Shown in pieces: positions 48,112 to 50,471 of a stretch of DNA of 64,000 nt. A program made the translations under genes and the position numbers. The stretch's first letter is position 1; every line of letters begins with the position of its first letter. Origin of the DNA: Acidobacteriota bacterium (GTDB taxonomy: Bacteria; Acidobacteriota; Polarisedimenticolia; J045); contig JAUZRX010000063.1 of assembly GCA_030949985.1 (NCBI GenBank), positions 6,855 through 70,854 of the forward strand. The letters run 5' to 3'. The notes below the pieces were generated by a model, which searched no databases, had not been told where the DNA came from, and saw only the letters and a program-made list of their open reading frames with translations.

Positions 48112-49470
48112 CTATGCGCCCCGCGCTTTCCGGCGCGCGAGGAACTCCTCCATGAAACGGGTGGAGAAATCGCCGTCCCGGAACCCGGGTTCCGCCACCA
48201 GCTCCTTGAGCAGGGGCAGATTGGTCGTGATGCCTTCGATCACGAAGAAGTCCAGGGCCCGGCCAAGGCGGGAGAGCGCCTCGTCGCGATCCCGGCCGCG
48301 CACGATCAGCTTGGCGATCATCGAGTCGTAGTGCGGCGAGACCTGGTAGCCGGCGTAGGCCGCGGTATCGATGCGGACTCCAGGCCCCCCGGGAGGATGG
48401 AAGGTCGTAATCGGCCCGGGACAGGGGCGGAAGGTCCAGGGGTCCTCCGCCGTCACCCGGGCTTCGATGCTCCACCCGCGAGGCTCGAGATCGTCCTGGC
48501 CATAGCCCAGGGGCTCCCCGGCCGCGATACGGATCTGCTCCTTGAGAAGATCGAGACCGGCGACGTTCTCCGTCACGGGGTGTTCGACCTGGATCCGCGT
48601 GTTCATCTCCATGAAATAGAACGAACGGTCTTCGTCGAGCAGGAATTCCACGGTACCCGCGTTCTGGTATTCCACCGCCCGGGCGGCCTGCACCGCGGCA
48701 CGCCCCATCTCGACCCGCAGGGCCTCGTCGAGCGCCGGAGAGGGGGCCTCCTCGATCACCTTCTGGTGGCGCCGCTGGAGCGAGCACTCCCGTTCGAAGA
48801 GGTGAACGATATTCCCGTGCAGGTCCCCGAGGATCTGGAACTCGATGTGGCGCGGCCGGACGATGAATTTCTCGAGATACAGCTCTCCCGAACCGAAGCC
48901 GGCCAGAGCCTCGGACCGACAGGTCTCGACGGCGCTTTCCAGGTCCTCCGGCCTTTCGACGACCCGCATCCCCCGACCGCCGCCCCCGGCCGCCGCCTTG
49001 ACGATCACCGGATAGCCGATTGCCTTGGCCAGCTCCGCCGCCTCCTCGAAAGACTCGAGGGTTCCCCGGCTGCCGGGAATCACGGGCACACCGGCGCTGA
49101 TCATCGCGGCCCGTGCCGCGGCCTTGTCGCCCATCTGCCGAATCGTCGCCGCCTGGGGTCCGATGAAGCTCAGGCCGCACTCGGCGCAAATCTCGGCGAA
49201 GTGCGGATTCTCGGCGAGAAAGCCATAGCCGGGGTGGATCGCATCGGCACCGGTGATCTCGGCAGCCGAGATGATGGCCCCGATGTTGAGGTAAGAGTCG
49301 GTCGACCGGGCAGGACCGATACACACGTCCTCGTCGGCGAAACGGACGTGGAGCGAATCCTGGTCGGCGTCGCTGTGCACCGCCACGGTGCGAATGCCCA
49401 GTTCCTTGCAGGCCCAAATGATCCGCAGCGCAATCTCGCCGCGGTTGGCGATGAGTATCTTCTCGAACAT
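48112..49470 (-). CDS. accC: Acetyl-CoA carboxylase biotin carboxylase subunit
   Basis: [17 protein letters not shown]…, ATP-grasp, …[14 protein letters not shown]…. 452 aa. Confidence 0.9.
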
Positions 49471-49479
49471 GGTCGTCGT

Positions 49480-49947
49480 TCAGTTCGGACGGATGCGGAA
49501 AAGAACCTCGCCATACTCCACCGGCTGGGCGTTTTCCGGCACGATCTCGACCACCGTCCCCGCTGTCTCGGCCTCGATCTCGTTCATCAGCTTCATCGCT
49601 TCGATGATGCACAGCGTCTGCCCCGGCGTGACACTGTCACCCACCTTGACATAGGGCTCGGCCTCCGGGCTCGGCGCCCGGTAGAAGGTGCCCACCATCG
49701 GCGCTTTCTGTTCGACCAGGCCGTCGTCGACACCGGTACCTTCCGCTTTCTCGGGCGAAACCGGCAGCGGCGGCGCAGGCGGAGCCGGAGGAGGCGCCGG
49801 TGCCGTCGGCTGGGCGGGGCTCACACCGGTGAGCACCGGCTGATCCTTGACCACCCGCAGGCGAAAGCCCTCCATTCGCAGCTCGAACTCGTGAAACCCG
49901 GCGTTGCGCACAAAACGAAGCAGGTCCTTGATCTCGCGCGGCTCCAA
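49480..49947 (-). CDS. accB: Biotin carboxyl carrier protein
   Basis: C-terminal biotinyl domain …[15 protein letters not shown]… (AMKM-type biotinylation site). Pro/Ala linker. TTG start at 49947 with GGAGGAA RBS proposed; the ORF frame opens at 50010. Confidence 0.8.
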
Positions 49948-50057
49948 CTCTTCCTCCGCTTTCTCCCTCCACCCGATTCCCGTCGGGTGGCAAGGCCAGG
50001 AAAAAGGCACCCGGTGTCAGGGTGCCGCGGGGATTGTGGCCGAGCGATTCGAGCGGG

Positions 50058-50471
50058 TCAACCCGGGCCTGAGGCTGCGGCGGGCCCGAGACGGTCGGCG
50101 AGGCGACCGGCGAGGACCCGGCCCGCCAGCCTCATACGTCCCAGATAGGGTTCCGGGCCCGCATCGAGAACCAGCACCAGCCCCACCGAGGGGACCCGGC
50201 GCAGCACGGCGATCCCGCCGCTACCGGTGACGATCACCTCCTCGCTGTCACCGATCCGGGCCGCGCGCAGAAGACCGGCCGCCGCCGCCATCCCTCCCAG
50301 GGCCTCGGCGCCCAGCTCTTCCAGGTCGCCGTCCAGGGCGGGATCGAAGCAGGCTCCGTCGACGAGTACGCCGTCCAGGTCGACCAGCACGGCACGGCGA
50401 ACGCCCGGGCACAGGCGGGCGGCGTCAGCCAGCAGCGAAGCCAGCTCCCCCCCTGTCATCGTCGTCACCAT
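50058..50471 (-). CDS. Roadblock/LC7-domain protein (MglB-like)
   Basis: 137 aa. …LVDLDGVLVDGACFD…SEEVIVTGSGGIAVLRRVPSVGLVLVLDA… alpha-beta-beta-alpha-beta roadblock fold pattern. ATG at 50471. Confidence 0.65.
   Translation of the reverse strand: MVTTMTGGELASLLADAARLCPGVRRAVLVDLDGVLVDGACFDPALDGDLEELGAEALGGMAAAAGLLRAARIGDSEEVIVTGSGGIAVLRRVPSVGLVLVLDAGPEPYLGRMRLAGRVLAGRLADRLGPAAASGPG

Follow-up and report, generated by a model that had tools for sequence, protein, structure and literature searches.

A putative MglC-type roadblock gene and accBC within a type IVa pilus gene cluster of an Acidobacteriota MAG

Why do the genes for two acetyl-CoA carboxylase subunits and for a small roadblock protein stand within a type IVa pilus (pil) gene cluster of an Acidobacteriota MAG? 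In an initial annotation of the 64-kb stretch of DNA analyzed here (the window), this arrangement was singled out. The explanation that we prefer, to which as a whole we assign a probability of about 75%, is that a 137-aa ORF encodes a divergent ortholog of MglC, itself a roadblock-fold paralog of MglB, which would act as an adaptor and which stands at an inherited position beside housekeeping accBC genes. MglC is already known and has been characterized from 2016 onward, and what the locus shows is a known arrangement, here unannotated, not something new; no new mechanism is revealed by it.

Gene order and the 137-aa ORF

Pfam and NCBIfam searches confirmed the gene content and minus-strand order initially proposed: pilMNOPQ, a lipoprotein gene, the 137-aa ORF, accB, accC, and pilB-pilT-pilC-pilS-pilR (Table 1), with two pilin genes next in the order. 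Pfam domains identified pilT (T2SSE), pilC (T2SSF), pilS (6TM_PilS with HisKA and HATPase), and pilR (Response_reg with Sigma54_activat). The tight spacing reported earlier matched the sequence, with intervals of 18 nt between the lipoprotein gene and the roadblock ORF, 47 nt (GTG start) or 110 nt (TTG 49947 start) between this ORF and accB, 9 nt between accB and accC, and 183 to 189 nt between accC and pilB. The reported overlap of pilQ and the lipoprotein gene, however, arises only with the longest lipoprotein ORF (TTG 51065); when the lipoprotein is started from ATG 51044, following the related contig L001, 17 nt separate the two genes. On the plus strand, long antisense ORFs (e.g., 47938-50148) were rejected as GC-rich artifacts by their codon-position composition.

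Table 1. Features of the pil cluster in the window and of the intergenic regions flanking accBC
Feature	Position	Strand	Basis or remark
pilM	55054-56118	-	Pfam PilM_2
pilN	54455-55057	-	Pfam PilN
pilO	53859-54452	-	Pfam PilO
PilP-position ORF	about 53335-53862	-	Position; no Pfam match
pilQ secretin	51062-53338	-	Pfam Secretin, Secretin_N, AMIN, STN
Conserved lipoprotein, 184 aa	50490-51044	-	Signal peptide with Cys lipobox
Probable MglC-family roadblock/LC7 protein, 137 aa	50058-50471	-	AF2, Foldseek, family profile, motifs, codon pattern
Promoter-like TTGACC-N17-CACAA(T)	50034-50061	-	Upstream of accB, overlaps roadblock stop codon; conserved in L001
Terminator-like hairpin GGCACCC-N7-GGGTGCC then TTTTT	50006-50026	-	32 nt past roadblock stop codon; sequence scan
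accB, biotin carboxyl carrier protein, 155 aa	49480-49947	-	TIGR00531, Pfam Biotin_lipoyl, EAMKLM
accC, biotin carboxylase, 452 aa	48112-49470	-	TIGR00514, three Pfam biotin-carboxylase domains
Second TTGACC-N15-CACAA copy	48021-48046	-	accC-pilB gap, upstream of pilB
pilB	46189-47928	-	Pfam T2SSE with MshEN
pilB, pilT, pilC, pilS, pilR block	40661-47928	-	Pfam

The 137-aa ORF, annotated by NCBI as a "hypothetical protein" (Q9Q40_12990, 133 aa from ATG 50459), is coding and a real gene. Its differences from the L001 homolog are distributed over the codon positions as 21/18/67, its GC3 of 0.81 is similar to that of the adjacent genes, and relatives keep its length and motif residues. A reading frame arisen by chance from GC-rich sequence, or a functionless decaying remnant, would agree with the lack of an above-threshold Pfam match, the "hypothetical" annotation, and the scarcity of relatives; a word-indexed search returned 2 homologs and an exhaustive HMMER search just 15 among 1.84 billion representative proteins. 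However, the predominance of third-position substitutions, the neighbor-like GC3, the conservation among relatives, and a structural model with a confident known fold all stand against such an origin, which is already disfavored and which we consider very improbable.

The product is predicted to have the roadblock/LC7 fold, an assignment that is marginal by Pfam alone. The profile check with PF03259 (Robl_LC7) gave 21.9 bits, just under the gathering score of 23, while 8 of the 14 family members matched this profile at an E value of <0.1. In the AF2 model (pLDDT, 74.6; pTM, 0.71), the topology alpha-beta-beta-alpha-beta-beta-beta-alpha is that of a roadblock protein, and the best Foldseek matches of the model were Robl/LC7 and MglB structures (E value of about 1e-8; probability, 1.0). 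The roadblock assignment made earlier is therefore favored by the model and by the family profile described below, though not by the Pfam threshold. MglC (7ct3) was absent from the top 50 Foldseek matches, which consisted of MglB and generic roadblock proteins, and a phmmer search of the PDB returned only a Thorarchaeota roadblock protein (E value, 0.032).

Relationship to MglC and MglB

A family profile (A2) was built from 14 relatives of the 137-aa ORF, with MglC left out of the build. Its best match in the PDB was M. xanthus MglC (7ct3; 36.7 bits; E value, 3.5e-8), which it covered from residue 4 to 118 of 120. The match to MglB (6h5b) was weak (14.7 bits; E value, 0.22), so that MglC was favored by about 22 bits. 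Likewise, hhalign of the family against 108 Myxococcaceae MglC sequences gave an E value of 2e-5 and a probability of 77% over 113 columns, and bridging sequences from other Acidobacteriota matched both HMMs (44.5 and 58.5 bits for L069, 49.2 and 36.6 bits for L020). An HMM built from Myxococcaceae MglC only did not match the window protein directly, and pairwise BLASTP of this protein against Myxococcus MglC gave an E value of 0.13. As these direct matches are too weak, the homology to MglC rests on the profiles and the intermediate sequences.

The residues through which MglC acts can be followed in an alignment of 49 MglC-like sequences, namely, the window protein and 48 ORFs of the fetched loci, most of them acidobacterial. 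D33-G34-V35 of the window protein align with D26-G27-I28 of MglC; within L32-D33-G34-V35, the Asp, the Gly, and the aliphatic residue are kept and F25 is replaced by Leu. Among the MglB-interface columns, D26 is D/E in 47/49 sequences, G27 is invariant (49/49), and I28 is I/V/L in all 49, while F25 is Phe in only 2/49; G-G stands in place of D-G in P0002, a close relative. R112/R114/R118 align with K104/R106/R110, the RomR-binding basic patch, of which K104 is R/K in 44/49 and R106 is R in 48/49 sequences; R114 is invariant in the 137-aa family. The window protein shares with MglC (MXAN_5770 [PMC4719450]; MglB_orphan1 subfamily; PDB 7ct3/7cy1) the roadblock fold, a length of about 120 to 137 aa, the D-G-aliphatic motif, and the basic K/R-x-R-xxx-R patch, and neither gene is linked to mglA. 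It differs from MglC in an identity of only about 21 to 29%, in the Leu at F25, and in about 10 extra residues at each of the N and C termini. Loss of F25, extended termini, and only about 15 known representatives mark the putative, fast-evolving MglC variant found in this lineage.

As noted initially, no mglA is adjacent to the gene: tblastn with M. xanthus MglA (query sequence verified against PDB 6hjh) found no match at an E value of ≤1 within the 64-kb window. Among 87 fetched loci, only two weak partial matches were obtained (L086, E value of 0.024; L071, E value of 0.19), and the sole GTPase in Pfam scans of most candidate ORFs of the window was YchF. Proteins in the MglB_orphan1 subfamily are recognized by having no mglA within four genes, which is the situation of the 137-aa ORF in the window, whereas MglB is recognized by being encoded beside mglA and by coevolution with it. 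MglB (M. xanthus MXAN_1926; T. thermophilus; PDB 3t1q/6hjm) has the same fold as the window protein and is among its top structural matches, but the weak profile match, the coupling to mglA, and the genomic context set it apart.

In M. xanthus, a RomR/MglC/MglB complex is stabilized at the lagging pole, which contributes to the choice of the pole with active type IVa pili. Through its basic patch K104/R106/R110, an MglC dimer is drawn to the Glu-rich C terminus of RomR, and through its acidic patch F25/D26/I28 it recruits MglB dimers in turn. MglC thereby links RomR to MglB as an adaptor and is no GAP itself; with or without RomR, it did not alter the GTPase activity of MglA (PMC10329633). The window protein had initially been read as an MglB-like orphan that might pair with a GTPase encoded elsewhere. 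An orphan of this kind, activating an MglA-type or SofG-type GTPase encoded elsewhere, would agree with the fold, with the MglB structures among the best Foldseek matches, and with the missing mglA, which makes the gene an orphan by definition. However, such an activator is unlikely given the preference of the family profile for MglC, the position of the gene, the conserved MglC-type basic patch, and the inertness of M. xanthus MglC toward MglA GTPase activity. The suggested link to the myxobacterial polarity system was right, with MglC as the closest known counterpart.

As an MglC ortholog, the acidobacterial protein would most likely act as the same kind of adaptor, serving an MglA/MglB/RomR module whose genes lie in another part of the genome. 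Group-1 MglA (PMC4316618) and RomR (PMC3441718) have both been reported in Acidobacteria in general.

Conserved neighborhood in Acidobacteriota and Myxococcota

In Myxococcus qinghaiensis (L005), pilMNOPQ is followed by genes for a 211-aa lipoprotein and MglC and then by efp, accB, and accC. The 137-aa ORF occupies the position of MglC in Myxococcus, after pilQ and the lipoprotein gene and before (efp)-accBC; the window, L001, L003, and L007 show this order with efp left out. In M. xanthus, efp is MXAN_5769 (PMC4320627), and the pil cluster ends with accBC (MXAN_5767-5768) (PMC2330069). In contrast to the Myxococcus locus, efp is absent between the 137-aa ORF and accB in the window, and accC is followed by pilB-pilT-pilC, whereas in Myxococcus it is followed by sgmX, and pilB-pilT-pilC stand upstream of pilM.

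Fifty GTDB Acidobacteriota loci were collected by PilM. An MglC-like ORF followed pilQ in 44/50 of these loci and was located directly upstream of accB in 40/50. As the same gene stands in the same place in Myxococcus and in most acidobacterial loci, the arrangement is not an oddity of this locus. From the gene orders compared, Acidobacteriota and Myxococcota have in common the block pilMNOPQ, lipoprotein, (extra genes), mglC, (efp), accB, accC, and the place of the 137-aa ORF in the pil cluster is taken to be inherited; the pilQ, lipoprotein, mglC, and accBC neighborhood is older than the split between the two phyla. A "hypothetical protein" in the pilus clusters of Acidobacteriota can be annotated as an MglC-type polarity adaptor. 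Together, this neighborhood and the MglC annotation indicate that in this phylum, for which motility genetics hardly exists, the polarity of type IVa pili is probably under MglA-type control in many members.

accBC, putative transcription signals, and the lipoprotein

The accB product exceeded the BCCP equivalog cutoff of TIGR00531 (157.3 versus 115.2 bits), matched Pfam Biotin_lipoyl (E value, 5.8e-23), and contains the EAMKLM biotinylation motif. Its longest ORF starts at GTG 50010; TTG 49947 is the likelier start, because it gives a canonical BCCP N terminus and the 155 aa called for the L001 homolog. AccC exceeded the TIGR00514 equivalog cutoff (682.9 versus 626.5 bits), and all three Pfam biotin-carboxylase domains were found. 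In L012, a close relative, mglC is directly followed by pilB and accBC is missing at this site. As the equivalog cutoffs are passed and L012 lacks accBC at the site, accB and accC are by these measures ordinary housekeeping acetyl-CoA carboxylase subunits that move with their neighborhood.

The location of accBC inside a pil cluster, which had drawn attention initially, was confirmed, but it reflects an old conserved neighborhood already present in the literature. Thomas et al. 2008 (PMC2330069) reported that type IV pilus clusters contain accBC in Myxococcus, Anaeromyxobacter, and Geobacter and raised a possible pilus-related role for the genes there. As in those clusters, accB-accC stands beside the pilMNOPQ block in the window; in contrast, it lies between mglC and pilB without efp and belongs to a phylum outside that paper. 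A function of accBC dedicated to making pili or to polarity, such as a locally regulated supply of malonyl-CoA, with the two genes cotranscribed with the pil genes as a super-operon, is suggested by that proposal, by the adjacency kept in 40/50 acidobacterial loci and Myxococcus, and by mglC-accB gaps of just 39 to 47 nt in L003 and L007. We give it a low probability, however, as both subunits exceed housekeeping cutoffs, the block also contains another housekeeping gene (efp) in Myxococcus and L026, and L012 retains mglC and the pil genes without accBC there. The window holds no second accBC copy against which specialization could be judged.

The intergenic signals also argue against such cotranscription and against the super-operon proposed initially. 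The gap from the roadblock gene to accB contains a terminator-like hairpin and a promoter-like motif, and this motif recurs upstream of pilB (Table 1), so that accBC is flanked on both sides. The hairpin is kept in L001, where an A-to-G change still pairs as G-U, and is absent in L003 and L007, which have the short gaps. At the pilB side, both hexamers are conserved in L001 and the spacer varies. The pattern TTGACC-N15/17-CACAA has only these two matches in 64 kb versus 0.05 expected, a ratio to be read with the pattern having been derived from the same two sites. Folded as RNA, the two intergenic regions did not exceed shuffled sequence in stability (z-scores, -1.1 and -0.6), terminator-like sites were in total no more numerous than expected by chance, and Rfam returned nothing meaningful for 47700-51200. 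Given the promoter-like and terminator-like elements, separate transcription units are suggested instead of one super-operon, with accBC probably transcribed from its own promoter.

As the tight mglC-(efp)-accB-accC linkage is kept across two phyla, it could reflect functional coupling, for example, coregulation of polarity or pili with growth rate or membrane-lipid synthesis. This, or a fast-evolving MglC variant that has switched partners and acts directly on the downstream pilus ATPases, is in our view distinctly unlikely.

The 184-aa lipoprotein had no match in Pfam or NCBIfam, and BLASTP against the Myxococcus lipoprotein was not significant, the link being made only via an iterated profile. 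A jackhmmer search from the window lipoprotein recovered the first ORF after pilQ in 56/58 loci, including Myxococcus (L005:9333-9968; 34.9 bits; mature region). By this profile, the window lipoprotein belongs to the same family as the protein at the MXAN_5771 position in Myxococcus and appears homologous across both phyla. A conserved uncharacterized lipoprotein family located directly after pilQ was thus brought out in passing.

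A roadblock protein of the MglC family

The 137-aa ORF embedded in the pilus gene cluster is a real gene, with a GC3 of 0.81 (window GC content, ~68%) and 21/18/67 differences at the three codon positions from its homologue on the acidobacterial contig L001. An NCBI Acidobacteriota MAG lists its product, at 100% identity, as "hypothetical protein Q9Q40_12990". The initial annotation had described it as an orphan MglB-like roadblock gene and named the Pfam Robl_LC7 profile as a check. The single sequence was borderline (E = 1.5e-4; 21.9 bits), just missing the gathering score of 23. 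Independently of Pfam, the roadblock fold was settled by the predicted structure: the AlphaFold2 model adopts a roadblock topology, alpha-beta-beta-alpha-beta-beta-beta-alpha (pLDDT 74.6, pTM 0.71), and Foldseek matched it to roadblock/LC7, MglB and LAMTOR proteins in the PDB (probability 1.0, E about 1e-8).

When 1.84 billion representatives were searched exhaustively with HMMER, only 15 relatives emerged. A family profile of 14 of these, which included no myxobacterial sequence, ranked Myxococcus xanthus MglC (PDB 7ct3) first among all PDB sequences (E = 3.5e-8, 36.7 bits, residues 4-118 of 120), compared with 14.7 bits (E = 0.22) for MglB. Compared profile to profile, the family matched 108 MglC sequences from Myxococcaceae with an E value of 2e-5 over 113 columns. 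The window protein alone, being too divergent, was matched neither by a Myxococcaceae-only MglC HMM nor by BLASTP. Roadblock ORFs from other Acidobacteriota matched both HMMs, bridging the window family and Myxococcaceae MglC, and several from Thermoanaerobaculia reached 70-75 bits (E about 1e-21) with the Myxococcaceae-only model. At the level of sequence, these profiles show the 137-aa protein to be a member of the MglC family. The earlier interpretation holds in part: the protein is a polarity-related roadblock protein, of the MglC type and not an orphan GAP.

Two surfaces of MglC have been mapped by experiment (McLoon 2016, PMC4719450; Carreira 2023, PMC10329633). In the window protein, R112/R114/R118 match the basic patch that binds RomR (K104/R106/R110), and L32/D33/G34/V35 occupy the positions of the MglB-binding patch (F25/D26/(G27)/I28). 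Across 49 aligned MglC-like sequences (the window protein and 48 ORFs, mostly acidobacterial, of the retrieved loci), the K104 column holds R/K in 44 sequences and the R106 column R in 48; in the MglB-binding patch the D column is D/E in 47/49, the G is invariant (49/49), the I column is always aliphatic (49/49) and the F is seldom retained. The alignment shows conservation of predicted interface residues. As in M. xanthus, a dimer of the 137-aa protein would bridge RomR and MglB, and this bridging would belong to an MglA polarity module encoded elsewhere in the genome. A search with MglA, its sequence checked against PDB 6hjh, revealed no mglA near the gene, as the initial annotation had stated. 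Group-1 MglA (PMC4316618) and RomR (PMC3441718) have been reported for Acidobacteria in general.

Gene order in Acidobacteriota and Myxococcus

According to Pfam and NCBIfam, the minus strand carries yajC-secD-secF, relA/spoT, ridA-like, pilM, pilN, pilO, a PilP-position ORF, pilQ, a 184-aa lipoprotein gene, the 137-aa ORF, accB, accC, pilB, pilT, pilC, pilS, pilR, two pilin genes and a Wzy_C/TPR protein gene. The gene content, order and spacing reported initially were confirmed, and the coordinates were correct when read from the sequence, with two refined starts. With a likely ATG start at 51044, the supposed overlap of the lipoprotein gene with pilQ becomes a 17-nt gap, the same as in L001. 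The accB gene most likely starts at TTG 49947, giving a 155-aa product with a canonical BCCP N terminus, and therefore lies 110 nt from the 137-aa ORF. The PilP-position ORF has no Pfam PilP match, unlike its Myxococcus counterpart.

The order is identical in three more acidobacterial contigs (L001, L003/L004 and L007). In Myxococcus qinghaiensis (L005), pilM-N-O-P-Q is followed by a 211-aa lipoprotein, the MglC orthologue, efp, accB, accC and a 1076-aa TPR protein, in agreement with the M. xanthus locus tags for mglC (MXAN_5770; PMC4719450), efp (MXAN_5769; PMC4320627), accBC (MXAN_5767-5768; PMC2330069) and sgmX (MXAN_5766; PMC7519303). The TPR protein (L005:13344-16574) occupies the position of SgmX, an MglA effector; efp-accBC in Myxococcus therefore has polarity genes on both flanks. 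Scanning the GTDB species representatives with PilM as the seed yielded 80 loci, nearly all titled Acidobacteriota. Among the 50 extending at least 5 kb past pilQ, an MglC-like ORF lies downstream on the same strand in 44, accB is present in 43, and the MglC-like ORF is directly upstream of accB in 40. One contig (L026) has the Myxococcus order mglC-efp-accB-accC, and Thermoanaerobaculia (L041:16161-19471; L057:16150-18300) have an Ig-like (TIG/PKD) and a ~400-aa TPR protein between the lipoprotein and mglC. These comparisons show that the 137-aa gene stands in the orthologous position to mglC, in an arrangement that is conserved and largely known already.

accBC and likely transcription units

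AccB, with its EAMKLM biotinylation motif, and AccC both scored above the NCBIfam equivalog cut-offs for housekeeping acetyl-CoA carboxylase subunits. In 2008, accBC was noted among the pil genes of Myxococcus, Anaeromyxobacter and Geobacter, with no functional link known (PMC2330069). We favor an inherited neighborhood over a pilus-specific role, because efp shares the block in some lineages, because accBC has been lost from the site in a close relative (L012:15705-18043; PilM 77% identical), where pilB directly follows the MglC-like gene, and because flanking regulatory-looking elements suggest separate control.

Coordinates of window features
Feature	Position	Strand	Description
MglC-family gene	50058-50471	-	137 aa
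Lipoprotein gene	50490-51044	-	directly 3' of pilQ
Terminator-like hairpin	50026-50006	-	7-bp GC-rich stem and TTTTT, 32 nt past roadblock stop codon
Candidate promoter	50034-50061	-	TTGACC-N17-CACAAT, upstream of accB, overlaps roadblock stop codon
Candidate promoter, second copy	48021-48046	-	TTGACC-N15/17-CACAA, upstream of pilB
PilP-position ORF	53335-53862	-	
HDOD ORFs	30973-31656; 31643-32212	+	profile positions 2-80; 93-195
Wzy_C/TPR protein gene	34065-37790	-	1241 aa

The hairpin is kept in L001 with one change that preserves pairing as G-U, and is missing from the short gaps of L003 and L007. The pattern TTGACC-N15/17-CACAA has only two matches in 64 kb (~0.05 expected by chance), a statistic that is indicative only, as the pattern was derived from the same two sites. 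Both copies, kept in L001 with a variable spacer, are candidate promoters whose pattern was chosen after the sites were seen. Identity to L001 in the two intergenic regions is 88% and 82.5%, on a par with coding DNA (80-88%) and far above third codon positions. Judged from sequence features, the likely units are pilMNOPQ-lipoprotein-mglC, accBC, and pilBTC and onward.

Lipoprotein and neighboring genes

A lipoprotein of ~185-210 aa is encoded directly 3' of pilQ in 56/58 loci across Acidobacteriota. Pfam and NCBIfam scans gave no match for it, and the window copy is remotely homologous, in the mature region, to the MXAN_5771-position protein of Myxococcus (L005:9333-9968; 34.9 bits). It represents an uncharacterized conserved family extending to Myxococcus and could act as an accessory part of the T4aP machine not described before. 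No publication treating mglC, pilQ and accB together was found in the literature searched, so that the conservation across phyla and the lipoprotein family each add a little to comparative genomics.

Elsewhere in the window, a single HDOD domain is spread over two overlapping ORFs, probably reflecting a frameshift, pseudogene or assembly error. The protein encoded downstream of the two pilin genes combines an O-antigen-ligase (Wzy_C) domain with C-terminal TPR and could be a pilin glycosylation enzyme.
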